NCBI GenBank assembly: GCA_913058275.1 | Contig: CAJXQP010000001.1 | Location: 4,901-68,900, forward strand | DNA length: 64,000 nucleotides | Reading direction: 5' to 3' | Source of the DNA: an uncultured Gammaproteobacteria bacterium | GTDB taxonomy: Bacteria > Pseudomonadota > Gammaproteobacteria > Pseudomonadales > Pseudohongiellaceae | Part shown: positions 23,936-42,582 of the stretch, one piece after another | Layout: every line of letters begins with the position of its first letter | Numbering within the stretch: position 1 is the stretch's first letter | Notes under the pieces: generated by a model | Databases searched by the model: none | What the model was told of the DNA's origin: nothing | The model's input: the letters and a program-made list of their open reading frames with translations, nothing else | Made by a program: the position numbers and the translations under genes

Positions 23936-25960
23936 CTAGTGACCGTCGTCACCGCCGACTATCGCGCCAGGTAATGCCATAGCGGTAAGCCTCGGTCCAT
24001 TCTGCAGCATCACATACTGATGGCCATCATGTTGGTAGGTCATCATGCCGTAGCGACTGAGTTCAGTGGTCTCGATTCGCGCTAGCTCTTCGCCGGTACG
24101 CTTATCTATCGCGAACAAGTGTGGCGTGCCATCTCCAACCGCACCGGAATACATCAGCATGTTCTTAGTAACTACCATTGTCGCCTTGGAGCCGCTTCCC
24201 GTATTGCCTATATCGACGCCAGCAAGCAACGGATGATTAGCAATATTATCCGGCGTCTCTCCAACAGGCAGCGTGAACAAGGTATCACCCGTGTTCATGT
24301 CGATAGCCTGAATACGGCTATAAGGTGGCTTAGTTATGGGAATACCCTGAATACGGCCTGGCGAGGCAGAACGGACAACGGCGTAGTCGGCGAAGGTTGT
24401 CCCAGTCGGCGCGTTCCAACGCAGATCAGCCTCGGCACCCGGGCCAAGTACTCGCGCCGTACAACCGGTGCTTGAGGTTACATACAGAATGCCTAACTCA
24501 GGATCGGCTGCGGCAGGTCCATTGATGTTGGCTCCACCACCGCCGCCAGGGCACCACAGTGCGGCCGTCTTACCCAACGCGTTGTCATAATGTAGAGGCG
24601 GATTAAAAAGTGGTCCGATCTCGAATTCAGACACAGCCTCTATAGCAAGTCTGCGTAGCTCGGGCGTGAAGTCGACGAGATCATTGATAGAGATGCCCTG
24701 TAATTCAAATGGCTCGGGTTTCGCTGGGAAAGGCTGAGTCGGCGAGAGCTTCTCTCCCGGCACACGCGAGCTTGGTACGGGACGCTCGACCATCGGCCAC
24801 AACGGCTCTCCAGTCTCACGATTGAATGCATATACGAAACCCTGTTTCGTCGCCTGCGCGATTGCAGGTACGTCGCGGCCCTCGATAGTAACATCCAATA
24901 AAACCGGAGCAGTCGGTGTGTCATAGTTCCAGATGTCGTGGTGCACCATCTGATAATGCCATTCTCTCTCGCCAGTATCGGCATCAAGAGCAATCAAACT
25001 CGCGGAAAATAAATTGTCGCCGGGTCGGAAACCCCCGTAGAAATCTATAGTCGCGGAGTTAGTCGGAATATAGACAAGGTTCAAGTCCTGATCGGCAGAG
25101 AGTGGCGCCCAAGAGGACACATCACCAGTCCACTGCCAGGCATCATTTTCCCACGTCTCGTGGCCGTATTCGCCGGGGCGGGGAATCACATTGAACTTCC
25201 ACTTGAAGTCGCCCGTTGCTGCATCGTAGGCAAGAATGTCCCCTGGTATATTCTCGATTCGCGCCTGGTTATAGCCCTGCTCGGCTGAGTTTCCAACTAT
25301 GATCGTGCCATTGACTACGATCGGCGGGGAAGAGGAAGTGATATAGCCAGTCTCTAGGGGAATTCCTTCATAAGGATCGTAGGGGTGGCCTAAGTCGGCT
25401 AGTAGATCAACAACTCCCGTTGCCGGGAAGCCATCCACAGGAACCTGACCACCGAAGCCCTCCACAGGAGCACCGGTCTCAAGGTCCAATGCCGTGAGGA
25501 AGAACGCCGGCGAAGTGATGTAGACCACCTTGCGTCCGTCGACCTCGGCGATGGTGACGCCCTTACCGTAATCTTTACGCATGGAATATTCGTAGCGAGC
25601 AGTCTTCGGCTCGACATAAGTCCAAACCGTCTCACCACTCTTTGCGTCGATAGCAATCACGTAGCGACGCGGCCCTGCTACGGTAATAATTTTGCCATCG
25701 ACGTAGCTCGGTGTTGAGCGTCCGCTCGCCGCGTTGAAGCTTGCGCCATCCCAGACCCATGCCTCTTCTAATTCTTCGAAATTCTCTGGCGTGATTTCAT
25801 CAACACTCAGGTAACGGGTGTGTGCATAGTCACTGCCTAAGGTTAGCCATTCGACAGAATCCTGTGCCAAAGCAAGTGAACTGACACAAGCAATAAGCGA
25901 GGCAGTAATTCCCCCGAATACTTTCCGGTTTAGTTTAGATTCAGAAAAATAATTCATCAC
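23936..25960 (-). CDS. Exported PQQ-dependent dehydrogenase (quinoprotein beta-propeller)
   Basis: Signal peptide, an N-terminal [12 protein letters not shown] motif, and repeated W-containing propeller blades. 674 aa. Confidence 0.75.
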
Positions 25961-28531: not shown

Positions 28532-30433
28532 CTAGATATAACGACTCAAATTTCTGTTCGCTCGCCCTAGTCGTTCAGACAAGACTTTCACGATGTAGGT
28601 ATGCAGTGCGGCTGTAGATGCAGGAAATCTTCGTAACATCTCCTCCAACTTCTCTTTATCCAATCTAAACAGGCGGGCATCGCTTTCAATGCGCACACTG
28701 GCTGTTCGATTCTCACCAGTATAGATAGCCATCTCCCCTAAGATTGCGCCGGCTTTGTACTTACGTAATATTCGCTCAACCTGCCGAGGAATCTTAAGAA
28801 CAACTACCACGGTTCCAGAGCCGACAAAATACAGACTCTCTCCTTTATCGCCCTCTCTAAATAAGTATTCGCCCGCCGTTCTGTTTTCGACGACGAAGAA
28901 GTCAGACAACAATTTGACATCTACCTCTTCATAAGCGATTCGGCCGAGAACGTCCTGCAACTCGAGAATTTGTTCTTCGTCGTTCAGCTTTAAATCTTGA
29001 GGTATGCGTCGCTCACACCAATCGACCGCCGTATCCAGTTGTTCTTTGTAATGTCTTTCCAGTCGTTGATCGTCAAGGGTAAAGAAATCATGTTTAACCA
29101 ATTGCTTGATCGATTTTTTTTCGGCGCTACTAATCACGATATGAAAACCAATTCGATCACTGAGCTGCGCTAGTTTGGAGAACGTTACGGTCGCTGATGT
29201 GTCTAGCTGGCTGACGTGATGAAAGTCCAGCACTAGGAAATCGAATTTACTACCGTCTAGCTCCATGATTCGATTGCGGATGGACGTAATCAGTTTATCT
29301 GCCGTACCGAAGAAGATGAATCCCTGAAGCACCATGATAAGTACACGATATCCCTCTTTATTCAACAACTCCCGCGTTTCGAGATCGCGATCTACATTGC
29401 TCGCGTGGTCGCCACCATTGGTTTCGACCTTAATCACGCTGAGTTTCGAGTAGTTCACTACGAACAAAATAATGGCAACGAAGAATCCGAACGTAACTCC
29501 TTGCAGGATGTCTGAGAAGATGATGACAACGAGGATAAGTATGACTACGACATAGTCAGATAGAGGTAATTCATCGCGCGCCTTCCACACCCAGTCAATA
29601 AGAAATCCCAAACCAACATAGATGAGCAATCCACCGAGAAGAAATGCCGGCACCAATTCCATAAACTCGGTGCCCGCTAGAATTGCGGCTGCTACCAAGA
29701 GAGAATTGACGATGCCCATCAGCCTGTATTTGCCGCCTAGTCTATCCACCAACGCGGTATCCGATGCGTCATGCACACCAGAAAATCCTCCCAGCATCCC
29801 ATTCACCACATTGGCATAACCCATAACTTCTAGCTCATGGTCGGGATTCAAATCTTTCTTAGCAAGAAGCTCGATACCAGAGACATCGAGCAAGAGCATC
29901 ATAGAACAGAGTAGTGCAACGACTACGATGCCACCGAGTTGTTCCCAGATAGCTATCCACTTCACTTCCTGCAGATACTCCCAATGGAAAACCGGGACCG
30001 GCGTGCCCGCGGATTCGATGATAGGTAGGAGGCCATTTTCAGCAGCCTGTTCGCGGCTGATTCCACCCATCGCCAACACCCCATAGAACAAGAGAACTCA
30101 CAACAACAAGATCCCTGGCACCGAGAGACGGTTGTCACGGAACATCTTGCCTATGATTAGACATAGCGCTAGCACGACCGCCGGCGTCACCAGTTGAATG
30201 AATTGGGGATCAGTAATAGAGCTTAGGTCGTCGTCGCGACCACTGGCTACAGTGATACCACCCTGTATGAAGATGTAGCCAATGCCAGCAAAGAATCCAC
30301 CGGTGACTGGATAGGGAATGTAGCGAACCAGATTGCCGAGCTGAGGCTACCTAAGAGCAACAGAAATAGGCCTGCAAAAGTCGTCGTAACCATGATCCCC
30401 ACTATACGGCCCTCTAAGGCAGTGTAAACTGCC
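28532..30433 (-). pseudogene. SulP-family anion transporter with STAS and cyclic-nucleotide-binding domains: 5'-truncated, one frameshift, one in-frame TGA
   Basis: The 519-aa ORF holds the distal TMs, a STAS-like region and a cNMP-binding domain (FREGDKGESLYFVGSG...GEMAIY). Upstream homology continues (..GRIVGIMVTTTFAGLFLLLLGSL / LGNLVRYIPYPVTGGFFAGIGYIFIQGG..). It is broken by a 1-nt frameshift near 30341 and by TGA at 30098-30100. The first ~100 aa of a normal SulP are missing. Confidence 0.8.
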
Positions 30434-31418: not shown

Positions 31419-32834
31419 TTGAGAATCTCCGCCCTACTGCTAATCACTCTGCTGAGCATCAATTCTAGTCACGCGTTCGAGGTTTCAGAGAATTTCTGGG
31501 AAAATGGACAGGCCGTCTTTCATGTCGGTATTAGCGGAAGCTCTCCAACCGGTGGAACATGGAACGATGCCTTCAAGCGATCGATGTCTGCCTGGAGCGA
31601 TGTTAGCTCCTTTGAATTTGTGGCAGTTGATGACTACCTAGACCCCTGCATAGATCGTGGGGAAGGGCTATTTGGCGACGGCTCGACTGGTATCGATTTT
31701 AGCGCGTCTGTTTGTGGCAGTGAATTTGGCGCAAACATATTGGCAGTTACACTCAGCGCCGGTATCTGCCAAAACCTGCAATGTACCGGCGGCTTTCTCA
31801 TCACTGATGGCGATATCCTGTTCAATAGCTCTGAGGCTTGGGATGTTTATAGCGGATCGTTGCGCTTCGATGGAGATAGCGAATTTGAACGCGTAGCTCT
31901 GCATGAACTAGGCCATGCATTAGGGCTCAACCACTCGAGCGCAAATTCCGCAATCATGCGCGCATTCGTATCCGACACAGACTCATTACAAAGTGACGAC
32001 ATCGCGGGCATTGCTTCTATCTACGGCGAAAACGAGATGGCGCAGGAGATTACTCTTGCGAACATCTACGGCGTTACTCTCGTGGCTCCCGACAACGCGA
32101 CAATATCAGGATCTAACTCCAGCAATAATCTCAGTGGCACACTAAGCAGCAGCGACAATCAACTAGATGGCAAGTCACTCGATCTGTATCAATACACCTT
32201 CGAAAATGACTCTTTGATAGATATCCAACTTGATTCACAATCATTCGACCCGTTCCTCTATCTTGTTAGAGTCTCTGCAACGCAGTCGGCACTGCCCAGC
32301 TTCACTTTCACCGATGACAACTCTGGGTCAGGTAACAACGCGAGAATCAATCGTAGCATCCAGGCGGGAACTTACTGGCTCGGAGTAAGCAGCGCGAGCA
32401 ACGCCGCTCAAGGCAGTTACGACGTATCCATCATATCGAACACGAGCAATCCATCTACTTCTTTCGAAACATTCACTTCAGTATATGGTGTGGACGTGCT
32501 GATAAATCCTAACCCAGATATTAGTGGCAGCCTTGGATCGACTGATTTCATATTTAACAATAGGTTTTTAGATCTTGTGCAGATTGAGGTGACGGCAGCG
32601 TCTACCGTGAGAATAGACCTTAATTCTTCGGCTTTCGATGCAAGCCTGTTGCTTGTTGATATCGTAAGTAATGAGGTAGGCAACTTAGCACTACAGAATG
32701 ATAACAACGGCAGTGGCACGAATTCTCGACTCGAGACCACACTTTCGCCAGGCACTTATTGGCTAGGCGTAACCAGCTTCAGTTCCGGTGAATCTGGCAG
32801 CTACGACATCGCGATCACACTCGTTCTTCCCTAG
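31419..32834 (+). CDS. Secreted matrixin-like (M10 metzincin) zinc protease with two C-terminal pre-peptidase (PPC)-like domains
   Basis: HELGHALGLNHS zinc motif followed by an AIM Met-turn. It has a signal peptide but no cysteine-switch propeptide. Two ~125-aa repeats end in GTYWLGVSSASNAAQGSYDVSI and GTYWLGVTSFSSGESGSYDIAI. TTG start. Confidence 0.8.
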   Translation: MRISALLLITLLSINSSHAFEVSENFWENGQAVFHVGISGSSPTGGTWNDAFKRSMSAWSDVSSFEFVAVDDYLDPCIDRGEGLFGDGSTGIDFSASVCGSEFGANILAVTLSAGICQNLQCTGGFLITDGDILFNSSEAWDVYSGSLRFDGDSEFERVALHELGHALGLNHSSANSAIMRAFVSDTDSLQSDDIAGIASIYGENEMAQEITLANIYGVTLVAPDNATISGSNSSNNLSGTLSSSDNQLDGKSLDLYQYTFENDSLIDIQLDSQSFDPFLYLVRVSATQSALPSFTFTDDNSGSGNNARINRSIQAGTYWLGVSSASNAAQGSYDVSIISNTSNPSTSFETFTSVYGVDVLINPNPDISGSLGSTDFIFNNRFLDLVQIEVTAASTVRIDLNSSAFDASLLLVDIVSNEVGNLALQNDNNGSGTNSRLETTLSPGTYWLGVTSFSSGESGSYDIAITLVLP

Positions 32835-32875: not shown

Positions 32876-34282
32876 TCAATCCACCGCCATGCGCACCATG
32901 GCGACGCGCTTAGGCACCTGTCCCACGGGGATCTGCGCGATGGCTTCCATTTTAATAGCATCTACAGCGTAGGTAACATTGTCACCCGCAGCACCGATAT
33001 ACGCCCGTTTGCCATCAGGCGTAAACGTGATCCACTCTGGGTGCTGACCTACGAAAACACGGCCAATCTCTTCCAGATCAGGAAGAGAATGGATATAGAC
33101 GTGACTATAAACCTTGCTTGTCGACCAGAGCATCGTGCCGTCTGGGGATACTGCCAAACCATGTGCAGGCGCACCCTGTAAACCATCCAGATGAGCCTCC
33201 TCACCCGGCACTGCGGGATGCTCTACGCGCGCAACCTCCTTCCTACTCGCGAAATCGACGACCGCGAAGCCGTGAAAACCAGAGAGCTGCACAAATATAT
33301 TCTTGGTTGAGCCGTCGGCGTTCGTATCGAACGTCATGGGCCGGATTCCAGAGCTCATCTCTAGCTCCCAAACCAATTCATCCGTGCTGGTATCGATGAC
33401 GTTGATGGTACGAGTTTGAATCGAACCAGCTACAGCGTAACGGCTATCTGGCGTCACATAGACGTTGTGAATGGCACCATTCACTGGCAATGTCTTCACG
33501 TTTGTCATGCTGGCCACATCGATAATATCCACTGACCCCGGCATCTCCATGATTGCCACGTAGACTTTACTGCCGTCGCTGGTTACACCCAAATTGTTCG
33601 GCCTACCGCTAAGCGGTATCCGTCTCTTAACGCGCAGAGTTCTAGCATCAACTATATCCAGAGAGTGCATAACTTCATTCGTGATATAGATCTGCGAGCC
33701 ATCGGGTGCACCGACCACACCGTGGGGAATTTCTATATCAGATATATGACCAACCACTTGGTTCGTCTCTGGGTCGATAATCGTTGAATCATCTCCTGCC
33801 GCATTCGTTTGAATAATCCGAATTGCTACACTGGAGGGCTCTCGCCTTGTTTTAGCTCCAGCTACCCAGTCGGCCATGATGCGCCACTCAGGGTCGAACT
33901 GGCTATCAAAGTGTTTGCCACCGCCATGAAAGGGGTCGCCACCTGCATCATAGGCCAGGGGGTGTGTTAGGAACCGGCTTCGCAGCGGATCTTCGCCGGC
34001 TAGGCTAAAACTGCTGGCCGAATCAAAATTCATTCGCGACTGCTCGTCGGTCCAAAATAGCTGGTGGTCTTCTAGAGGCTGTATTCTAAAACCACTACTG
34101 CGCGTATGACACTGAATGCAGCGAACGTTGCCTTCACGCTTGGAGAGGAAGATCGGTTGCACTTCGTTCTTAAAGTAGTCGAAATCCAGCTGCACATCCT
34201 GTGCGAAGAGAATGTTGGAGCAGAACAATGTGAATAGGCTGAAGAGCTGAACACTCGTTCTCAATCTGGTGTTGGGATTCAT
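32876..34282 (-). CDS. Exported protein: N-terminal CxxCH (c-type haem) module fused to a YVTN-type beta-propeller
   Basis: Signal peptide, then FKNEVQPIFLSKREGNVRCIQCH (a planctomycete-type cytochrome-c-like motif), then about seven propeller repeats (..SPDG/TPDG/TSDGSKVYV..). Confidence 0.6.
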   Translation of the reverse strand: MNPNTRLRTSVQLFSLFTLFCSNILFAQDVQLDFDYFKNEVQPIFLSKREGNVRCIQCHTRSSGFRIQPLEDHQLFWTDEQSRMNFDSASSFSLAGEDPLRSRFLTHPLAYDAGGDPFHGGGKHFDSQFDPEWRIMADWVAGAKTRREPSSVAIRIIQTNAAGDDSTIIDPETNQVVGHISDIEIPHGVVGAPDGSQIYITNEVMHSLDIVDARTLRVKRRIPLSGRPNNLGVTSDGSKVYVAIMEMPGSVDIIDVASMTNVKTLPVNGAIHNVYVTPDSRYAVAGSIQTRTINVIDTSTDELVWELEMSSGIRPMTFDTNADGSTKNIFVQLSGFHGFAVVDFASRKEVARVEHPAVPGEEAHLDGLQGAPAHGLAVSPDGTMLWSTSKVYSHVYIHSLPDLEEIGRVFVGQHPEWITFTPDGKRAYIGAAGDNVTYAVDAIKMEAIAQIPVGQVPKRVAMVRMAVD

Positions 34283-34330: not shown

Positions 34331-36205
34331 CTACTCTAGCAGTTGCACCGCTCCTGCGCTAGGCAACGAGACGCCAAAAACCTTCAGGTAGAGACGCCTT
34401 TCTTCGACAGCCATTCGAAACTCGGAAGACATATAGTGACTACCGGTGGCCGCTTCTGCATCCGGGGGCAGCAAGTTGAGGACAATCGGTTCATTGAGCT
34501 CGCCGTCGCCATTCGAATCAACTACCAGCGTAACCGCTGTAATTGCTTGCCCTTGTGCTTGCTCTCCCGCCAGCCCTTTACTGACGTGGTATTCAAATAG
34601 ATTCGTAACCCTGCTGTATTCGAAGCGCGCCTCAACACGCAGCGACCCTCGACTGAAGACAAGCTCAAAGCTCTGCGAAGCCGGCGCGAGCCCTGACTCT
34701 AGAGCGGGTGTTGTTGAGGGAGCACGCCTACTACTCATTGCCGCTTCATAGGTCTGCGCGATAGCCAACAATTCAGCATCTTGCAAGAACCCGCCCAAGA
34801 GTTCCAAACCCACCGGCAAGCCATTGCTAGTAAACCCTGCAGGCATCGAGAGGGCTGGCAAACCAGAGTTCGCACTAAGGCTGCAATTGCTACCCGGCTG
34901 CGAGTCGCCTGTGAACACCTGTGTGCGCTTGATCGTTGGGTAGGCGATCGCATTCAGGCCCTGCTCACTCATCACCGCCTCTATAGCAGCACGCAGCTGG
35001 GATCTAACCGCTATCGCCATTCGATAGGCTGGCTCGTCGAGTTCCGATGCGTTCGATCGGCTAAGCACACCATCGACTGCCTCATGATAGAGACCCTTGC
35101 TGACAATGAAATTCAGATTCAGGCCGTCGTCCAGGGAAAACGTGTCCAGATAGTTATTTATATCCGGCTTAAACTCGTGCCCGATTAATCCCGAGCGTCG
35201 AATTAGATCCTCCACGTCGGGTATCTCAATATCGACAATCTCGGCACCCTGTAGCTCGTACCAATCGAGAACGTCTTCTATTGCTGTGTTCACTGCGCCA
35301 TCAGAACCCTCGAAATACTCTTGTAGTTTACCTATGCGCAGATCCGCCAGATTCGCAGAATGCAGTCTATCCATAAATGCCGGGACAGCCGCTGTTCTCA
35401 TTATCTGTGTAGCCTCGTCTCGGGAATCATAGCCGGAAACAATATCGAGAATAATAGCGAGGTCTTGCGCACTGCGCGCTAACGGGCCTGCTACATCCTG
35501 AGTATGAGAAAGCGGAAGAATGCCGTAGATGCTAGAAAGCCCCTTGCTGGGCCGCAGTCCAAATAGATTATTAAATGCGGACGGTATGCGAATCGAACCA
35601 CAGGTATCCGAGCCGAATCCAGCCGCGGCAAAACTAGCCGCTACGGCAGCACCGGTGCCACCGCTCGAGCCGCCGGGAACGCGCCTGGGATCATAAGGAT
35701 TACGTGTCTGCCCTACTAAGGAACCGATACTCGTGATGCCATAGGCATACTCATGCAAGTTCGTCTTCGCCAGAATGATGGCTCCTGCGAGCAGCAGTTT
35801 ATCCACCTGCGCCGCATTCTCGCTGGGAATGAAATTCGCTAACGCCACAGAGCCTCCAGTTGTCGGCATATGATCCGTGTTGTAGTTGTCCTTAACTACG
35901 ATGGGCACGCCATGCAGAGGGCCACGCGAACCCGTTCTCTCTCGCTCCGTATCGAGTGCTTGCGCTTGAGCCAGCGCCTGCGGATTTACGCGTACTATAC
36001 TATTGAGTTTTGGTCCTTGCTTATCATAGGCCTGTATCCGATCTAGGTACTGCTGAACTAATTGCATCGAACTCACTTGGCCTCCATCCAGGGCGTCCCG
36101 AATCTCGGTAATACTCGCCTCGAATACGTCGAACTGCGGCTGCGCCACAACCGTAAGGGGAGCCAGCAAGCACAGTGAAAACAGGAAAGTACGAGAACGA
36201 GTCAT
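34331..36205 (-). CDS. Exported amidase-signature enzyme with an extra ~130-aa C-terminal domain
   Basis: GGSSGG and GSDTCGSIRIPS amidase-signature motifs. Signal peptide after ATG 36205 (MTRSRTFLFSLCLLAPLTVVAQ). Confidence 0.8.
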   Translation of the reverse strand: MTRSRTFLFSLCLLAPLTVVAQPQFDVFEASITEIRDALDGGQVSSMQLVQQYLDRIQAYDKQGPKLNSIVRVNPQALAQAQALDTERERTGSRGPLHGVPIVVKDNYNTDHMPTTGGSVALANFIPSENAAQVDKLLLAGAIILAKTNLHEYAYGITSIGSLVGQTRNPYDPRRVPGGSSGGTGAAVAASFAAAGFGSDTCGSIRIPSAFNNLFGLRPSKGLSSIYGILPLSHTQDVAGPLARSAQDLAIILDIVSGYDSRDEATQIMRTAAVPAFMDRLHSANLADLRIGKLQEYFEGSDGAVNTAIEDVLDWYELQGAEIVDIEIPDVEDLIRRSGLIGHEFKPDINNYLDTFSLDDGLNLNFIVSKGLYHEAVDGVLSRSNASELDEPAYRMAIAVRSQLRAAIEAVMSEQGLNAIAYPTIKRTQVFTGDSQPGSNCSLSANSGLPALSMPAGFTSNGLPVGLELLGGFLQDAELLAIAQTYEAAMSSRRAPSTTPALESGLAPASQSFELVFSRGSLRVEARFEYSRVTNLFEYHVSKGLAGEQAQGQAITAVTLVVDSNGDGELNEPIVLNLLPPDAEAATGSHYMSSEFRMAVEERRLYLKVFGVSLPSAGAVQLLE

Positions 36206-36678
36206 GATGCGCACCGATAGTAGGATAAGAAAGAACAAGTGAAGAAAGTGTATGTGAATGAAGAGTAGATAACCACAGCCTGTCTTTTACACAACCTTTA
36301 TGCTCCGAGAGATGACTACCCTAGTTCGCGACGATCTTTAACCGTGATTGCAACATGAGAGCAGCCATGTTGTTGCCAAGAGTAAGCGTTAGACTTTAAA
36401 TCTGGCTCCAGCGCCTAAGAAGATTCGTCTGAGATCGCTGGTCGTAGCCGCCCCATCGGCAAATTGCCCAACCACCATGAGTGCGTCCACAACCTTGAGG
36501 TTTTGATCATTTAGCAATTTTGGGGACACGCAGAGACATAACTCTCCCCCAGTTCGGAAGCAACTATCTAGCCCCTGTGTGGGCCGCTACAGGCTCACCC
36601 CTCTCAGCTTTTTTAGCACTTTCGCCGACTGGCGGGTGAGTGTCAATAGTGCTCGTTCTTATGGGCGGGCAACAAAAA

Positions 36679-36710
36679 GGCCGCTGTGATGACTTAGCAT
36701 CATAGCGGCC
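36679..36710 (-). terminator. Rho-independent terminator after the ridA-like gene
   Basis: 13-bp stem GGCCGCTGTGATG/CATCATAGCGGCC with one mismatch and a 6-nt loop. On the minus strand it is followed by TTTTTGTTG. Confidence 0.6.
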
Positions 36711-36752
36711 TTTCAATATTCCTATGTATTCTTTCGCCTTAGCGAAAAACTT

Positions 36753-37241
36753 TTAGTCAGGCATTCGCGCAGCACGAATCTCGATCTCAATTAGCCAACC
36801 GGGGACAACCAAGCCAGCAATCTCTACGAAAGAACGAACTGGCTTCATTGCATTTTTCTCGCTACCAAAGAACTGCTGATAACCAGCATTAAAACCGGCG
36901 AAGTCCAATTCTCCATCGTCACCGGATACGGCGAATGCGCGTACCTGTACGATGTCTTCTAAAGACCAGCCCTGCGCCTCTAGCGTTTCTTGGAATCGGC
37001 CAAATGTGTCGATTGTCTGCTGCTCCATATCACCCCACGTGCCGTCAGCTTGTTGCTGCGCACCGGAACCGCTGAGGTATAAGGTCTCGGCACCAGCTGG
37101 AATCATAATATTATTGAAGAAGTTTCTTCCCTCGCCAGTACGTACAATTTCTGCGGCGCTTGAAACGGCAGCAATGCCCAGGACAACGGCAAGTGATGCT
37201 GCTATGGAAATCGCAGTGAGTGGCTTCTTAAATTTAATCAT
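36753..37241 (-). CDS. Exported RidA/YjgF-family protein
   Basis: Sec signal peptide (MIKFKKPLTAISIAASLAVVLGIAAVSSAAE) and a C-terminal RidA core with the conserved Arg (..PVRSFVEIAGL..GWLIEIEI). Confidence 0.75.
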   Translation of the reverse strand: MIKFKKPLTAISIAASLAVVLGIAAVSSAAEIVRTGEGRNFFNNIMIPAGAETLYLSGSGAQQQADGTWGDMEQQTIDTFGRFQETLEAQGWSLEDIVQVRAFAVSGDDGELDFAGFNAGYQQFFGSEKNAMKPVRSFVEIAGLVVPGWLIEIEIRAARMPD

Positions 37242-37281
37242 TATTTTTTGTTCCTCTATTCTTAATAAAACTAAAGCGTAC

Positions 37282-38670
37282 TTATGATTTTTGTAATTCT
37301 ACCTCAGGCCTAGTCGCCTCTCTGGCAGCGTCCTTATCACCTAGTATGCGGGTAGTGATCATTCCTGTTGTTATCGCTCCATTCACATTCAATGCAGTAC
37401 GCGCCATATCTATCAAAGGCTCGATAGAAATTAACAGTGCGGCAATCACTACTGGAAATCCCATTGCGGGTAAGACTACCAATGCCGCATTAGTCGCACC
37501 ACCGCCGACGCCTGCGATACCGAATGAACCTATCGCGATAATTACTAGCAGACTAACTATGAAATTGAGATCAATGTCTACACCCATCGTAGGCGCGACC
37601 ATCACCGCGAGCATCGCTGGGTAGATTCCCGCGCAGCCATTCTGCCCTATAGTCGAACCGAACGAAGCGGCGATGTTAGCAATCGGTGCGGGCACATTGA
37701 GTTCTTCTATCTGTGCACGAATTGTCAGAGGAATAGTTGCAGCAGAACTGCGCGTGACGAATGCAAACGTGAGAACCGGCCACACTTTTTGGAAATAAGT
37801 TTTAATGTTCGCGCCCAAGCCAATAATGATCACAGCGTGTACCGTGAACATTAGGGCGATAGCTACATAAGATGCGATCACAAAGCTGATCAAGTTCATG
37901 ATGGCTTGGCCATCGGATGTCGCTATCACGCGAGTCATCAGCGCCAAAACACCGTAAGGCGTCAGCGCCATAACAAGCTTAACGAGGCGCATAATTATCG
38001 CCTGTAATGTGTCAACTGCGCTACGGATTCGCGAGCCTTGCTCGGCATTGTCTTCGGCAACCAACAATGCAGCGACACCAAAAATCAAACCGAAGACCAC
38101 AACACCAATGATAGACATGCTGCGCTGACCAGCAAGGTCGGAGAAGATGTTGGTGGGTACGAAACTAACGAGGAGCTCGGCAAGACTCAGATCGGCAACA
38201 CTACCCTGTCTTGCTTGCAATACTTCTGCACGTGCCATCTCTGCGGCACCGCCGGCCAGATCGCCCGCATTCAATTGAAATAATGTGGCCATCAAGATGC
38301 CGATTAGCGCAGCGATAACCGTAGTGACGATCAACGTTCCGACTACTGTGCCACCAATCTTGCCCAGCGACTTGATCTCATCCACCTTTAGTACGGCAGC
38401 AATCATAGTAATCAGAATAAGCGGCATAATCATCATGCGCAGCAAGCCGACGTAGCCGTTCGCGATTACATTTGTCCACTCGAGTGTGGCATCCATGACC
38501 ACAGGATTCCCAGCGAACGCAAACTGCAGATACAGTCCGAACACAGTGCCGCCAACGAGGCCCATGAACACACGTCGGGAAAGCGTAAACGCCTCATTCT
38601 TAGCGAACTGGTAAAGCAGGCTCACTAAGGCCGTGAAGAGGATCAGGTTTACTATCGCGATAATGGGCAT
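37282..38670 (-). CDS. Dicarboxylate/amino-acid:cation symporter (DAACS family)
   Basis: 462-aa polytopic protein with family motifs (..TRSSAATIP.., ..GVGGGATNAALVVL..). Confidence 0.8.
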   Translation of the reverse strand: MPIIAIVNLILFTALVSLLYQFAKNEAFTLSRRVFMGLVGGTVFGLYLQFAFAGNPVVMDATLEWTNVIANGYVGLLRMMIMPLILITMIAAVLKVDEIKSLGKIGGTVVGTLIVTTVIAALIGILMATLFQLNAGDLAGGAAEMARAEVLQARQGSVADLSLAELLVSFVPTNIFSDLAGQRSMSIIGVVVFGLIFGVAALLVAEDNAEQGSRIRSAVDTLQAIIMRLVKLVMALTPYGVLALMTRVIATSDGQAIMNLISFVIASYVAIALMFTVHAVIIIGLGANIKTYFQKVWPVLTFAFVTRSSAATIPLTIRAQIEELNVPAPIANIAASFGSTIGQNGCAGIYPAMLAVMVAPTMGVDIDLNFIVSLLVIIAIGSFGIAGVGGGATNAALVVLPAMGFPVVIAALLISIEPLIDMARTALNVNGAITTGMITTRILGDKDAAREATRPEVELQKS

Positions 38671-38701
38671 ATGTCAGCTCCTTTGGATGGCAGCGCCTAG
38701 T

Positions 38702-39322
38702 CTAACGGGAAAGCGTGTTGATGTAACTCACTACATTGAGGATGCCAGCCTCATTACGCAGAGTGCTCACCATGGTGCGCATCTGTGCCCCATAGGTATC
38801 ATTCGGGTGCGCGCCTCTGTACCCAGCTAGGAAGTTCTTTAGCTGAGTGACGAGATACCAGTCATTCTGTCCGACCAAGGCGGGTGCGCCAAGGCTCTCA
38901 TTGCCCGTCGCGTTTGCCCCATGACAGACAGCACAACCGCCATACAAGCCTCGACCGCGTAGTGGATCACCGCCCTGTATTGTTGCTTGTGCAGGCATGT
39001 AATCCCAGCTGGATATCCAATCGATGATGTCATCGATCGATTCATCGGTTAGTTTCGTCGCCATGGGGCGCATGGCGATACCTTCTCTATCTTCAGCGTG
39101 CACACCACGGATATCGGCGCGGAAGTTTTCCAATTGTCGCCTCAGGTACCAAGGTTCCATTCCAGCAAGTCGAGGAGCCTGCACGCCTTCGTTGCCGCGG
39201 CCGTCTGTGCCATGACAAGTTGTGCAATAGCGATCGTCGAATGGTTCGCGCTCCGATTCCGCCGCGCTGGCGCCTCCAATACAAACCATGCAAAGACCGA
39301 ATGCCAGAAATGCCTTCAACAT
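38702..39322 (-). CDS. Periplasmic dihaem c-type cytochrome (c4-like)
   Basis: Signal peptide and two CxxCH motifs (CTTCHG, CAVCHG). Each is followed by a candidate distal Met segment (MRPM, MRTM). Confidence 0.8.
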   Translation of the reverse strand: MLKAFLAFGLCMVCIGGASAAESEREPFDDRYCTTCHGTDGRGNEGVQAPRLAGMEPWYLRRQLENFRADIRGVHAEDREGIAMRPMATKLTDESIDDIIDWISSWDYMPAQATIQGGDPLRGRGLYGGCAVCHGANATGNESLGAPALVGQNDWYLVTQLKNFLAGYRGAHPNDTYGAQMRTMVSTLRNEAGILNVVSYINTLSR

Positions 39323-39349
39323 ACTTTTATTTCTCCAAATCTTGATTAG

Positions 39350-40951
39350 CTACGCCATCAACCGCTGATTCAAATCAGCCATCGCCCACTGCGCCGACAT
39401 CACCGCACTCTCTTGCCATGCTGAATGCATGCTTACCTGATCACCGATCATATAGTGGCGACCGTTAACTGGCTGCTGTAGCGCGCGGTACAACTCTTCT
39501 TCCTCATGGGTCCAGCCGTTACGATCACGCTGCCATCGCGCAGAACAGCCAAGCATATGATTCATGCGATGCCAGGCGATAGTGATAGGTTTCTCAACCT
39601 GATTACGGTAGTTAGGGTGAATCTTCTCGCCATCAGTGAGGTGAGCCTCGATACGCTGTTCATGAGTCATGGCGGTGTGTAGCTCGCCGTCGCCGTAGTC
39701 GTAGGCCCCCAGCATTATGCCCTTGTGCTTGTGCATGCCAGCGCTCGGATACCAGATCTGTTTACTAGGATTATTCATCCAACTGATACCGCCGTAGATA
39801 TCTTCTTTCTCCCAGAAGCGCTCCTTTGCTTGGAAGGCAGCCTTATACGCTGTTCCGCGACGAATATACTTAAGCGCATCCACATATTGAGTTGGGAAAT
39901 TGTTGGTGATACCAGTCATGATATGACTCGGTATGCAATTGAAGCAGAAATCAGCCTGCAGTAAATGGCGCGTGCCATCCTGATCGTAAGCAATGTCGAT
40001 TCCGTCATCTTTGACTTCGACAGCATTCACCATCGAACGATAGTGAATCTGATGACCTACATGATTGGTGAACCCTTCGATGATCTTGTCCATACCACCC
40101 GCGGCCTGAAACAGCATAGGCCCAGTATCGCCCTCGTTAGCATTCAAGAACTGGCGGCCCATCTGCGTTTTCAAAAGGTCCCTCATGGCAATGATATCTT
40201 TCTGAGCACCGTGCTCTAAGAATCCACCAGACGCATAGCCTGCACGTAAACTCCCCTTATAGAGATTGTCCTCGTTGAGGTCCCCGAAAGAGCGAATCAA
40301 GCTCATCAGAGTTTCCGCTTCTGGGTCGGTAAAGGGCTGGTCCATTTCTCCGGCAGAGAGTGACTTCGCCAATAATTCCGCCAGAAACCCTCGCGTATGA
40401 GTTGTGTAGTCGATATTGCGGATCGGCTTTCCATCAAGTAACGCTGGATCTTGTAAATAGGACGTCTTGTTCTCGTTGATGAATACTTCGAGATCGATCT
40501 CCAGTTCTTTGCAATAGGCCAGCAGGTTTCTGTGAGTACTTGGAATACGCGCCGCACCAGCGTTGAAGTACATGTGCGGCTCGTCGTCGAATTCACAATA
40601 TTGGCGGTTGCCAATTTCATCGATCAAGTCACCGTGGCGTACGGTAAAAATTCTGCCACCCGGTCGATGCGAGGATTCCAATATCGTGCACTCGTAGCCA
40701 ACCTTGCTGAGCTCATAGGCAACGGTGAGACCCGACAGACCTGCACCTAGGATGGCAACTTTACGATTCGCCGGATTAGCTCCGCGCAGATCCAAGGTGG
40801 CTGCCTGCGCTGTATGCGGAAGCAGACCCAGTGCCGAGCCTGCTTTAAGAGCTGCCGCGGTTCCGCCGGCGGCACCCAATAAATTTAGAAACTCTCTACG
40901 TGTAACTTGTTTGGACACGCCTACCTCCAGAGATGGTATCGATCTGGACAT
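39350..40951 (-). CDS. Tat-exported FAD-dependent amine-oxidase-family flavoprotein
   Basis: Twin-arginine signal (QVTRREFLNLLGAAGGTAAALKAGSALG...AQA) and the dinucleotide fold KVAILGAGLSGLTVAYEL...ILESSHRPGGR typical of the MAO/LAAO family. Confidence 0.8.
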   Translation of the reverse strand: MSRSIPSLEVGVSKQVTRREFLNLLGAAGGTAAALKAGSALGLLPHTAQAATLDLRGANPANRKVAILGAGLSGLTVAYELSKVGYECTILESSHRPGGRIFTVRHGDLIDEIGNRQYCEFDDEPHMYFNAGAARIPSTHRNLLAYCKELEIDLEVFINENKTSYLQDPALLDGKPIRNIDYTTHTRGFLAELLAKSLSAGEMDQPFTDPEAETLMSLIRSFGDLNEDNLYKGSLRAGYASGGFLEHGAQKDIIAMRDLLKTQMGRQFLNANEGDTGPMLFQAAGGMDKIIEGFTNHVGHQIHYRSMVNAVEVKDDGIDIAYDQDGTRHLLQADFCFNCIPSHIMTGITNNFPTQYVDALKYIRRGTAYKAAFQAKERFWEKEDIYGGISWMNNPSKQIWYPSAGMHKHKGIMLGAYDYGDGELHTAMTHEQRIEAHLTDGEKIHPNYRNQVEKPITIAWHRMNHMLGCSARWQRDRNGWTHEEEELYRALQQPVNGRHYMIGDQVSMHSAWQESAVMSAQWAMADLNQRLMA

Positions 40952-41299
40952 TCACTTGATGGCCGTCAGATCGCGTTAAATAAATAAAGATGTTCGACAA
41001 TGCAGCATTGTCATAAAATAAACACCTTTGTAGCTCAAATCAACGCACCATTTCAGATTCGTGAATGAATGCCACGATACACTGATTACTCGGGACGTCC
41101 AGCGAAAGCACGAACCACCCTAAGGCGGCTATCCTCGGTCAGATTCTTAAGTATAATCAAGAGAGGCTGATAGAGATTTGGATTCCTGCTGTGTTGGGTC
41201 GTAGTCCAGATATTCAAATAAATCTACAAATAAATTTTCAAAGTTATTAGCTCTATTTACAAAATTGAATATTCCTTAAATTCAAACCCGGAAACTTTC

Positions 41300-41614
41300 A
41301 TGCCCTTATCTGATTACTACCCTGATCTAATCTGTAATCTCCCAAAGTTCAGCGGCCGATTCGATGCGAGGAAATTGTCCGCTGAGAATTATGACGTACT
41401 ATTTGCTACCTACCCTGCCGGCACCCTCATCGAACCGCACCGACACGACACAGACAATGTTGGCGTAATTACTAAAGGAGAACTGCTGCTAACTGTGGAC
41501 GGCGCAACGACAACTATCTCGACTGGTCAGTGGTACCACGTTCCAGCTAACAAAGAACACAGCGCCGAATTTCGAGAAGATACCTGCGAGATTGAATTCT
41601 GGTTCACTGAATAA
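41300..41614 (+). CDS. Small cupin-domain protein
   Basis: 104 aa with PAGTLIEPHRHD...G.WYHVPANKEH cupin motifs. Confidence 0.6.
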   Translation: MPLSDYYPDLICNLPKFSGRFDARKLSAENYDVLFATYPAGTLIEPHRHDTDNVGVITKGELLLTVDGATTTISTGQWYHVPANKEHSAEFREDTCEIEFWFTE

Positions 41615-41675: not shown

Positions 41676-42582
41676 TCATGGATTAAGAAGTGCAGTAAGC
41701 ACAGAAGGCAGAGTCGGGTACTCCAACTGAATGCCAAGATCGGCTAGCTTATGTGAAGTAACTCGCGAGCTGCCTAGTAGCAGCGCCTCCCCCATTTCGC
41801 CGAAAAGCAACTTCACCATGAAACCTGGCAACGGCATAAAGTGAGGCCGATGCAGGGATTGCCCAAGATGTTCGCTGAAATCTAGATTACTAATAGGATG
41901 CTGGGCAACGAGGTTGATCGGTCCACTTTCGAGATTATTACTAATTAGCTTGTGGATAATTGCATAACGTCAGCGATGCTAATCCAACTCATACCCTGTA
42001 GCCCACTCCCAACGCGCTCGCCTAAGCCCAGCGTAAAGGGCCGCAGTAGTTTCTTAAGCACACCACCGAGTGGGCTAACACAATCCCGAATCTAAGATGA
42101 ATAGTATTGATGCCAGCTGCCACAGCGGAAGCCGTCGCTTCTTCTCAAGCCTGCGCTACTTCTGCCAAAAAATTGCTGCCAACAGGGCTTTTTTCATCGA
42201 CGTCGAATTCGCCAGTTTCACCGTAAAAGCCAATCGCTGATGCTGAAAGAAAGCTTCGAGGCTTGTTATCTGACTTCGCCAGCGCTGCAGCCAAAGCATG
42301 TGTCAATCGCTGCCTGCTATCCAGAATTTCGCGCTTCCTACCCTCGCTCCAGCGCTTGTCGGCAATACTGGGGCCTGCCAAGTTTATGACCGCTAATAGC
42401 GGGATTGACGGATCCATATGCACTCGGCCGGCAGCGCCATCAAAGTAGAACAGCGCGTCGCTGGAATGCCGACTTAGTTGATGGTCCGCGAAGCCACAGT
42501 GTGAGAGGTACTCAACCAGCGCACTACCTATCATTCCCGAGGCACCGGTAATCAGTATGTTATTGCTTTGGGTTTGTGACAT
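41676..42582 (-). pseudogene. YfcH-type (TIGR01777-like) NAD-dependent epimerase, decayed: one nonsense codon and two frameshifts
   Basis: The intact N-terminus (ILITGASGMIGSAL) stops at TGA 42145-42147, where Trp is expected (..AQA*EEA). Homology continues in other frames (GGVLKKLLRPFTLGLGERVGSG..MSWISIADV, then ..LESGPINLVAQHPISN..HRPHFMPLPGFMVKLLFGEMGEALLLGS..). The shifts lie near 42066-42076 and 41964-41966. Confidence 0.8.

Follow-up and report, generated by a model that had tools for sequence, protein, structure and literature searches.

Flavin amine oxidases (FAOs) that are exported by means of twin-arginine translocation (Tat) and encoded with a cytochrome c (CytC) were established as dehydrogenases between 2021 and 2025 (PMC9396064, PMC12224317). 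In stopped-flow measurements on 25 FAOs, a Tat signal combined with an operonic Sec-exported CytC marked the CytC-using dehydrogenases, with the adjacent CytC being the stronger predictor and FAOs with a Tat signal alone being oxidases (PMC12224317). A related arrangement built around an L-amino-acid oxidase (LAAO), the lao–cccA–ridA cluster of Gluconacetobacter diazotrophicus, was described in 2016 by authors who proposed that the cytochrome aids the redox step and that the Rid protein hydrolyses the imine, and who reported conservation in Caulobacter and Xanthomonas (PMC5053998). Clustering of RidA/Rid3 genes with FAD amine-oxidase genes had been reported in 2015. Here we analyse a four-gene locus of this general kind, encoding an LAAO-family flavoprotein, a c-type cytochrome, a TcyP-type symporter and a Rid-family protein, in a stretch of 64,000 nucleotides (the window) from an uncultured marine gammaproteobacterium of the Pseudohongiellaceae (assembly GCA_913058275.1, contig CAJXQP010000001.1, positions 4,901 to 68,900).

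Our preferred reading, which we hold at a probability of roughly 0.6, is that the four genes would form a module in which a periplasmic L-amino-acid:cytochrome c oxidoreductase works alongside a Rid3 imino-acid hydrolase. The genes, in predicted order of transcription, are:

39350–40951, minus strand: predicted Tat-signal L-amino-acid oxidase-family flavoprotein of the Rhodococcus opacus LAAO (roLAAO) clade, 533 amino acids (gene 1)
38702–39322, minus strand: predicted Sec-signal dihaem c-type cytochrome, c4-like, 206 amino acids (gene 2)
37282–38670, minus strand: predicted TcyP/YdjN-type cystine/S-sulfocysteine:cation symporter of the DAACS family, 462 amino acids (gene 3)
36753–37241, minus strand: predicted Sec-signal Rid3-subfamily imine/enamine deaminase, 162 amino acids (gene 4)

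Assignment of the four proteins

A reading made earlier from the DNA and its open reading frames (ORFs), here called the sequence-only reading, had named a family for each protein, and profile searches returned the corresponding Pfam models: Amino_oxidase (PF01593) for the flavoprotein (2.4e-31, residues 72–521), two stretches of Cytochrom_C, that is, class-I domains, for the cytochrome, SDF for the symporter (4e-93) and Ribonuc_L-PSP for the Rid protein (6e-17). The twin-arginine sequence TRREFLNLL and the GxGxxG...ExxxRxGGR motif that it had pointed out in gene 1 are both present, the latter as an FAD-binding motif, GAGLSG...ESSHRPGGR, that follows the Tat signal. When the protein is aligned with 117 full-length sequences, each representing a cluster at 50% identity, G69, G71, G74, E92, G98, G99 and R100 of this motif are kept in 108–116 sequences and R96 in 101.

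Full-length homology places the flavoprotein with the LAAOs. It matches the structure of roLAAO (PDB 2jae) with an E value of 4.6e-74 (query 54–531 to chain 3–485), which is the sole full-length solved relative among the PDB matches listed and is ~31% identical in the family alignment; vertebrate LAAOs match at ~1e-25 or weaker in the PDB search. Monoamine oxidase A, LSD1 and putrescine oxidase match only residues ~63–115, the ~50-residue FAD motif, and no chain of NicA2, Pnao or hydroxynicotine oxidase is found among the best 60 PDB matches, which are dominated by LAAOs. The counterparts of R135, Y417 and K370 in the roLAAO chain are positions 83, 370 and 322; the three residues are conserved in 115, 105 and 109 of the 117 representatives, respectively, and W512 in 113. 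We take R135 to be the arginine that binds the substrate α-carboxylate in LAAOs, Y417 to be its partner tyrosine, and K370 to be the lysine near flavin N5 that is linked to O2 reactivity; W512 may form part of an aromatic cage. A literature search on the roLAAO residue names found nothing. Because homology to LAAOs spans the full length, MAO-type matches are limited to the FAD motif and the carboxylate-binding Arg and Tyr are kept, gene 1 is assigned by homology to the L-amino-acid enzymes of the roLAAO clade and not to the NicA2/MAO-type amine enzymes. The sequence-only reading had put it in the same family as NicA2, which is right for the superfamily fold (PF01593) but probably not for the clade.

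The best PDB match of the cytochrome is cytochrome c4 (1etp, E value of 9e-15, residues 31–201). Its two haem-binding motifs are C33TTCH, with M84 and M87, and C130AVCH, with M181 and M184; each CxxCH is thus followed by an MRxM sequence that could supply the distal Met. By this similarity gene 2 is classed as a c4-like dihaem cytochrome. The two CxxCH motifs and the Sec signal noticed in the sequence-only reading are there, the signal as judged by motif and conservation.

The symporter aligns with E. coli K-12 TcyP/YdjN (b1729) over residues 2–459 at 50% identity (408 bits, E value of 6e-144). Both proteins have TIGQNGCAG where the aligned aspartate-transporter chain has TINMDGT, and both have IDM[AG]RTALNV, in which three residues of the aspartate-transporter sequence LDMARTTVNV, its Asp, Arg and Asn, are retained. 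We take these three residues to be D394, R397 and N401 of GltPh, the Asp being the one that binds the substrate α-amino group. Against NCBIfam models the symporter scores far below threshold for GltP (117 bits versus a cut-off of 638), DctA (97 versus 513) and SstT. As a control, E. coli TcyP gave the same sub-threshold GltP/DctA pattern, the weak extra match to SstT being found only in the window protein; the library has no TcyP model. The annotation of E. coli TcyP, cystine/sulfocysteine:cation symporter, describes substrates in which a cysteine moiety is joined to an anionic group, and YdjN is a demonstrated L-cystine importer (PMC4383340). Because of this demonstration and the 50% full-length identity, the symporter is predicted to import a cystine-type amino acid and not a keto or dicarboxylic acid. 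An importer of the latter kind, one of the options offered by the sequence-only reading, was rejected given the failed GltP and DctA models and the identity and motifs shared with TcyP; its other option, import of the substrate itself, is kept as one possibility.

The Rid protein matches the Rid3 proteins PSPTO_3006 (3e-21) and PFL_1385 (4.5e-19) best in the PDB, with E. coli YjgF/RidA at 5.5e-5, and fails the RidA models TIGR00004 (33.9 bits versus a cut-off of 106) and PRK11401 (25 versus 222). RidA sensu stricto was rejected because these models failed and the Rid3 matches are far better; by sequence similarity gene 4 belongs to the Rid3 subfamily. In its PVRSFVEI motif, R136 aligns with the catalytic Arg105 of E. 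coli RidA, and E154 aligns with Glu120. The exported RidA with a catalytic Arg of the sequence-only reading therefore keeps its Sec signal features and its Arg but changes subfamily. In vitro, PSPTO_3006 and PFL_1385, both placed in Rid3 by PMC5619798, act as deaminases on imino acids made by LAAO, and on iminoarginine (PMC5619798). A search for homologues of the Rid protein gave only close Pseudohongiellaceae relatives among the matches listed.

Predicted export of three of the proteins

Export signals were judged by motif and by conservation across orthologues. The N terminus of the flavoprotein has a canonical Tat signal, V-[ST]-RREFLNLL followed by a hydrophobic stretch and AQA (an AxA site). 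This Tat motif is present in all 80 related loci described below, R18 and R19 are invariant in the alignment, and an RR-x-hydrophobic-hydrophobic sequence occurs within the first 80 residues of 105 of the 117 full-length distant representatives. The N termini of the cytochrome (79 orthologues) and the Rid protein (66 orthologues) vary in sequence; all retain a basic n-region and hydrophobic core with an AxA-type site behind them, and they lead into conserved mature starts, AE.EREP... in the cytochrome and AEIVR or QEITR in the Rid protein (…SSA|AEIV in the window protein). Because the sequences vary while the n-h-c and AxA features persist, we read these Sec signals as probably functional. Homologues from Alphaproteobacteria have the same three signals on flavoprotein, cytochrome and Rid. 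Taken together, these features predict export of the flavoprotein by Tat and of the cytochrome and Rid protein by Sec.

Two variants of the export pattern were seen. In one related locus (L073) the Rid orthologue has a lipobox-like LLTAGC sequence, a lipoprotein-type rather than a plain Sec signal. On a plasmid of the Gram-positive Metabacillus dongyingensis (L092, 3842–7105), an LAAO homologue is followed by genes for a Rid family hydrolase, tatA and tatC, without a cytochrome c.

Conservation of the arrangement

We compared the locus with 80 loci from a genome scan, all from Pseudohongiella, Pseudohongiellaceae or OM182-type metagenome-assembled genomes (MAGs) at 61–99% identity, in which ORFs were called and then searched with the window proteins; distant taxa were sampled separately. 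Two of these loci (L001 and L002, at 99% and 98% identity) represent effectively the same organism as the window. The cytochrome gene lies directly downstream of the LAAO gene in all 79 loci that have downstream DNA. The full LAAO–CytC–TcyP–Rid order was found in 62 of 76 assessable loci, down to ~63% LAAO identity; the LAAO gene is followed by CytC and TcyP only in 2 loci, by CytC and Rid without TcyP in 6, and by CytC only in 6. In a neighbour-joining tree the four-gene form makes up one large clade with few losses, and the CytC–Rid form and some CytC-only forms make up an outgroup of paralogues, some of them in genomes that also have the four-gene form.

The pairing extends well beyond this family. 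In Microbulbifer and Haliea the order is TonB-dependent receptor, LAAO, CytC, Rid, and a third MAG outside the family has LAAO followed by CytC only. A tblastn search of plasmids gave homologues at 32–36% identity. The order FAO, cytochrome c, RidA is found in Sulfitobacter indolifex, Paracoccus marcusii and Ketogulonicigenium vulgare; in Rhizobium tropici the FAO gene precedes that for cytochrome c, and in Deinococcus radiodurans the cytochrome c gene comes first. The triad thus occurs without the transporter in Sulfitobacter, Paracoccus, Ketogulonicigenium, Microbulbifer and Haliea. On Dinoroseobacter shibae plasmid pDSHI02 (L088, 1–6913), a gene for a c-type cytochrome, coxB, ctaD and an assembly gene for cytochrome oxidase immediately precede, in the same orientation, the genes of the LAAO homologue and its cytochrome c, an arrangement that suggests a dedicated terminal oxidase. 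Given this recurrence across taxa at 32–36% identity, the pair of Tat-LAAO and cytochrome c is, as judged from gene order and homology, ancient and widespread, with Rid a frequent third member and TcyP a lineage-specific addition. The co-conservation anticipated in the sequence-only reading is therefore found, both in the four-gene order among close relatives and in the recurrence of Tat-LAAO, CytC and exported Rid in Alphaproteobacteria.

The TonB-dependent receptor gene directly upstream of LAAO–CytC–Rid (L081, 5273–7897; L084, 5267–7894; L072, 5272–7863; L078, 3–2621) is present in Microbulbifer and Haliea and also in two paralogous loci of the Pseudohongiella type, and a winged-helix regulator gene is found near the Microbulbifer and Haliea loci.

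Organization of the putative operon

The four ORFs run in the same direction on the minus strand with intergenic gaps of 27, 31 and 40 bp, as the sequence-only reading had described; the AT-rich region of ~350 bp and the hairpin with T-run at 36679–36710 that it had placed on either side are also real features. The two flanking features are:

40952–41299, no strand assigned: AT-rich divergent intergenic/promoter region between the putative operon and a cupin gene, 348 bp
36674–36714, minus strand: intrinsic terminator ending the putative operon, an RNA fold followed by U5

The upstream region has a GC content of ~0.40, compared with ~0.50 in its surroundings. The terminator is a GGCCGC...GCGGCC hairpin, with its G+C core at 36679–36710, followed by T5; its predicted RNA fold has an energy of −24 kcal/mol (z = −5.82), and none of 200 shuffled sequences was equally stable. 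A consensus terminator scan missed it, possibly owing to an internal mismatch in the stem, and inside the operon such a scan gave no more sites than in shuffled sequence. No sigma-70 consensus was found in 40952–41299, with no excess over shuffles in the whole scanned region, and an Rfam scan of 32–44 kb matched no family, so that no known riboswitch or leader lies in the AT-rich region. A Shine–Dalgarno-like sequence precedes each of the four genes. For gene 1, GGAGG lies 5 nt before a GTG at 40918, whereas the ATG at 40951 has no Shine–Dalgarno sequence. Because of this GGAGG and because the orthologues start MSKQVTRREFL, GTG 40918 is probably the true start, which would give a product of 522 amino acids and extend the upstream intergenic region down to 40919. 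No paralogue of any of the four genes occurs elsewhere in the window. Given the gaps of 27–40 bp, a Shine–Dalgarno sequence for each gene, one strong terminator at the end with no excess of internal ones, and a four-gene order that makes up one large clade, we infer that the four genes form one co-transcribed operon.

Proposed function

In the module that we propose, the FAD enzyme would be exported folded via Tat and would oxidize an L-α-amino acid to the 2-imino acid. The reduced flavin would be re-oxidized by the Sec-exported dihaem c4-type cytochrome of the same operon and not by O2, and the cytochrome would pass the electrons to a terminal cytochrome c oxidase. In the periplasm, the Sec-exported Rid3 protein would speed hydrolysis of the imino acid, which yields ammonium and the 2-oxo acid. 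The TcyP-type symporter would import cystine or an S-substituted cysteine-type amino acid from the periplasm, rather than a keto acid; what is imported would come from the pool on which the enzyme acts or would be a sulfur amino acid brought in beside it.

The analysis shows how the genes are ordered, to which families the proteins belong, which signal-peptide features and catalytic residues they have and how far the module is conserved; that cytochrome c is the acceptor, what Rid does in vivo and what the transporter carries are predictions drawn from these results. The substrate is proposed to be an amino acid because the enzyme has the Arg and Tyr that bind the carboxylate, together with the N5 Lys and the conserved Trp. 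Coupling to cytochrome c is proposed because the LAAO–CytC pairing is kept, because adjacency to CytC predicts dehydrogenases among the FAOs measured (PMC12224317), and because of the genetics of G. diazotrophicus, in which Tn5 insertions in lao abolish indole-3-acetic acid (IAA) production and both lao::Tn5 and cytochrome c maturation (ccm) mutants make ~95% less indoles from tryptophan (PMC5053998). The pairing with TonB-dependent receptors suggests that the module is generally tied to nutrient acquisition. The sequence-only reading had proposed a periplasmic amine or amino-acid dehydrogenase that feeds respiration through its own cytochrome, and comparative evidence favours this with an amino acid, not an amine, as the predicted substrate; its exported Rid acting on the imine product outside the cytoplasm also fits that evidence, as well as the catalytic Arg and signal features of the predicted protein.

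Several points weigh against this reading. roLAAO, the closest characterized homologue, carries the name L-amino acid oxidase in its PDB entry and is a true O2-using, H2O2-producing oxidase, and the N5 Lys tied to O2 reactivity is conserved in 109 of 117 representatives. TcyP is not found in the paralogous and distant versions of the module at the loci inspected, and the proposed module gives no reason for its place inside the operon. An AlphaFold2 model of the flavoprotein (14-sequence alignment) had a mean predicted local distance difference test score of 49.5, too poor for a fold search, and was not used. Both export and co-transcription are conclusions that we infer. We found no biochemical proof in the literature searched of a cytochrome c acceptor for an LAAO-clade enzyme. 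Finally, whether an FAO is an oxidase or a dehydrogenase cannot be read from its sequence, and the enzymes from which the adjacency rule was derived sample NicA2-related clades, with L-amino acids never mentioned (PMC12224317).

Alternative explanations

Three reasons for the embedded TcyP can be offered, namely uptake from the same substrate pool, a system specific to cystine or cysteine conjugates, or a peroxide-scavenging shuttle if the enzyme is an oxidase, and the latter two underlie alternatives to our reading. In the first alternative, the flavoprotein is a genuine periplasmic L-amino-acid oxidase that converts O2 to H2O2, the cytochrome has some other role, TcyP takes part in an H2O2-scavenging cysteine/cystine shuttle and Rid limits imine damage. 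The closest solved and characterized homologue is indeed an oxidase with the same conserved N5 Lys, FAOs with only a Tat signal were oxidases (PMC12224317), and cystine import in E. coli belongs to a periplasmic cysteine/cystine shuttle that scavenges H2O2 (PMC4383340). However, that shuttle depends mainly on FliY–YecSC, with YdjN serving nutrient uptake (PMC4383340), and a c4-type dihaem cytochrome is not a peroxidase. Moreover, the adjacent cytochrome c is present in 79 of 79 loci and across phyla, once beside cox genes, and such adjacency is the validated predictor of a dehydrogenase (PMC12224317). We consider an oxidase of this kind unlikely.

Returning to a respiratory enzyme, the TcyP-containing form could be dedicated to L-cystine or cysteine S-conjugates, with one amino end being oxidized and cystine or the half-oxidized mixed disulfide being imported to give sulfur, nitrogen and respiratory electrons. 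The 50% identity to TcyP, whose E. coli member is annotated for cystine and sulfocysteine, is consistent with this, as is the fact that throughout one large clade, to ~63% LAAO identity, TcyP has kept its place between the genes for the cytochrome and Rid; TcyP-less paralogous modules in the same genomes further suggest different specificities. Yet transporter specificity is itself uncertain at 50% identity, and roLAAO-type enzymes have a broad substrate range. In addition, no other sulfur-metabolism gene adjoins the operon, the nearest being a partial sulfate-permease-family/STAS gene at 28532–30091, ~6.7 kb downstream. A dedicated cystine pathway therefore also seems improbable to us. In a bolder form of the idea, the TcyP-containing form of the abundant marine OM182/Pseudohongiella lineage would be a periplasmic pathway that links L-cystine or cysteine S-conjugates to the respiratory chain. 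Electrons from the oxidation of one amino end would pass to cytochrome c4 and on to a terminal oxidase, the exported Rid3 would hydrolyse the imine and TcyP would import cystine or what is left of the compound with its cysteine part, so that a single dissolved compound would provide sulfur, nitrogen and energy without H2O2. In addition, the whole roLAAO clade, most of it Tat-exported and most of it beside a cytochrome c, would be L-amino-acid dehydrogenases and not oxidases; we regard this combination as quite unlikely.

The main role could instead be conversion of Trp to indole-3-pyruvate for auxin (IAA) synthesis, as in G. diazotrophicus lao–cccA–ridA, which provides the sole genetic phenotype known for this type of cluster (PMC5053998). 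That phenotype, observed when tryptophan was supplied, may come from an enzyme of broad range, and the module is very widespread in free-living marine oligotrophs, where it is coupled to nutrient transporters (TcyP and TonB-dependent receptors), which makes a primary role in auxin synthesis very improbable. Lastly, an amine dehydrogenase of the NicA2/Pnao type would share the superfamily fold, Tat signal and adjacent cytochrome c, but was rejected as scarcely plausible given the full-length homology to LAAOs, the confinement of MAO-type similarity to residues ~63–115, the conserved carboxylate-binding Arg and Tyr and the lack of NicA2 among the 60 matches listed.

If the LAAO-clade enzymes with CytC, as proposed in our preferred reading, are dehydrogenases, the Tat-FAO and CytC rule would extend to a fourth, large, amino-acid clade. 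The flavoprotein has 1779 database relatives at E ≤ 1e-20, and its roLAAO-type clade comprises 330 clusters (50% identity) at E ≤ 1e-30, ~90% of them with a twin-arginine motif. The label 'L-amino-acid oxidase' in bacteria would then need revision, with periplasmic oxidation feeding respiration and regenerating ammonium without H2O2, which would bear on the turnover of dissolved organic nitrogen by such common marine heterotrophs as Pseudohongiella/OM182, Microbulbifer, Haliea and roseobacters. Rid3, as yet a poorly understood subfamily, would gain a physiological extracytoplasmic role, and there would be a possible reason why G. diazotrophicus cytochrome c maturation mutants lose auxin production. 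The operon offers a clean set of enzyme, cytochrome, Rid and transporter for direct testing.

Neighbouring genes

Approximately 0.5 kb downstream of the terminator, and downstream of the operon in most related loci, lies a minus-strand gene (34331–36238) for an exported amidase-signature enzyme, a homologue of the periplasmic peptide amidase Pam of Stenotrophomonas (1m21/5ac3, E value of ~2e-74) with a C-terminal extension of ~130 amino acids; this enzyme may be a source of substrates or of ammonia for the same compartment. Directly after it in many related loci, and at 32876–34282 (minus strand) in the window, is a gene for an exported protein with an N-terminal CxxCH haem motif (RCIQCH) fused to a YVTN-type β-propeller, resembling hydrazine synthase β and a surface-layer protein propeller. 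Divergent from the operon, in a position conserved in most Pseudohongiellaceae loci, a plus-strand gene (41300–41614) encodes a single-domain cupin of 104 amino acids, which lacks a DNA-binding domain and could be a small-molecule sensor or an enzyme.

Further away are genes for a matrixin (M10) metalloprotease with a PPC domain (31419–32834, plus strand) and a pyrroloquinoline quinone (PQQ)-dependent alcohol/glucose-dehydrogenase-type propeller (23936–25960, minus strand). If these two, as putative extracytoplasmic enzymes, are counted with the amidase and the LAAO operon, for which export is predicted, there seems to be an enrichment for extracytoplasmic catabolic enzymes in this region. A 145-amino-acid ORF at 42145–42582 (minus strand) resembles an epimerase-type protein, of which it seems to have just the N-terminal NAD-binding part (GASGMIGS motif), and may be a truncated or frameshifted gene.

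Comparison with known systems

The sequence-only reading had held that no system with this combination was described. This was too strong, as the lao–cccA–ridA core appeared in 2016 (PMC5053998) and Rid–FAO clustering in 2015: the three-gene core is already described, and only the embedded TcyP as an operon member is new. In the literature searched we found neither the exported nature of the associated Rid, nor a dihaem c4-type partner, nor an embedded TcyP; nothing joined TcyP with an L-amino acid oxidase, and nothing addressed a Tat-LAAO with cytochrome c as electron acceptor.

For roLAAO we know of no partner cytochrome. This O2-using oxidase from an actinobacterium differs from the window enzyme in its origin and, on our reading, in its acceptor, and is its closest solved structure (2jae), with the same FAD- and substrate-binding residues and, according to PMC5053998, a Tat signal. 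The periplasmic LAO1 of Chlamydomonas (described in PMC5053998) is likewise an extracytoplasmic LAAO, with a Rid-like subunit, but is eukaryotic, O2-using and ammonium-scavenging and has no cytochrome partner. NicA2/Pnao–CycN and the CytC-dependent flavoprotein amine dehydrogenases (PMC12224317, PMC9396064) share with the window operon the FAO superfamily, the Tat signal and an operonic Sec-exported cytochrome c. They probably belong to another clade and act on amines, whereas the window enzyme is of LAAO type with the carboxylate-binding Arg and Tyr and is paired with a c4-like dihaem cytochrome; Rid and a transporter were not considered in that work.

Among the accessory proteins, the Rid3 proteins PSPTO_3006 and PFL_1385 (PMC5619798; PDB 9bka, 9bkc), the best PDB matches of the window Rid, have its catalytic Arg; the window protein has a clear Sec signal peptide, whereas export is not mentioned in PMC5619798 or in the 2015 report on Rid–FAO clustering. 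The TcyP/YdjN protein of E. coli (50% full-length identity) and TcyP of B. subtilis (PMC4383340) share signature motifs with the symporter, but their genes are members of the cysteine regulon, with no redox operon around them.

The closest described system is thus lao–cccA–ridA of G. diazotrophicus PAL5 (GDI2456–2454; PMC5053998), with a Tat-signal roLAAO-like LAAO, a cytochrome c and a Rid protein; its homology to the window operon was traced through roLAAO and the alphaproteobacterial plasmid loci. It differs in having three genes and no transporter, and its phenotype is IAA production from Trp. The cytochrome is monohaem in the alphaproteobacterial versions inspected and dihaem in the window operon.

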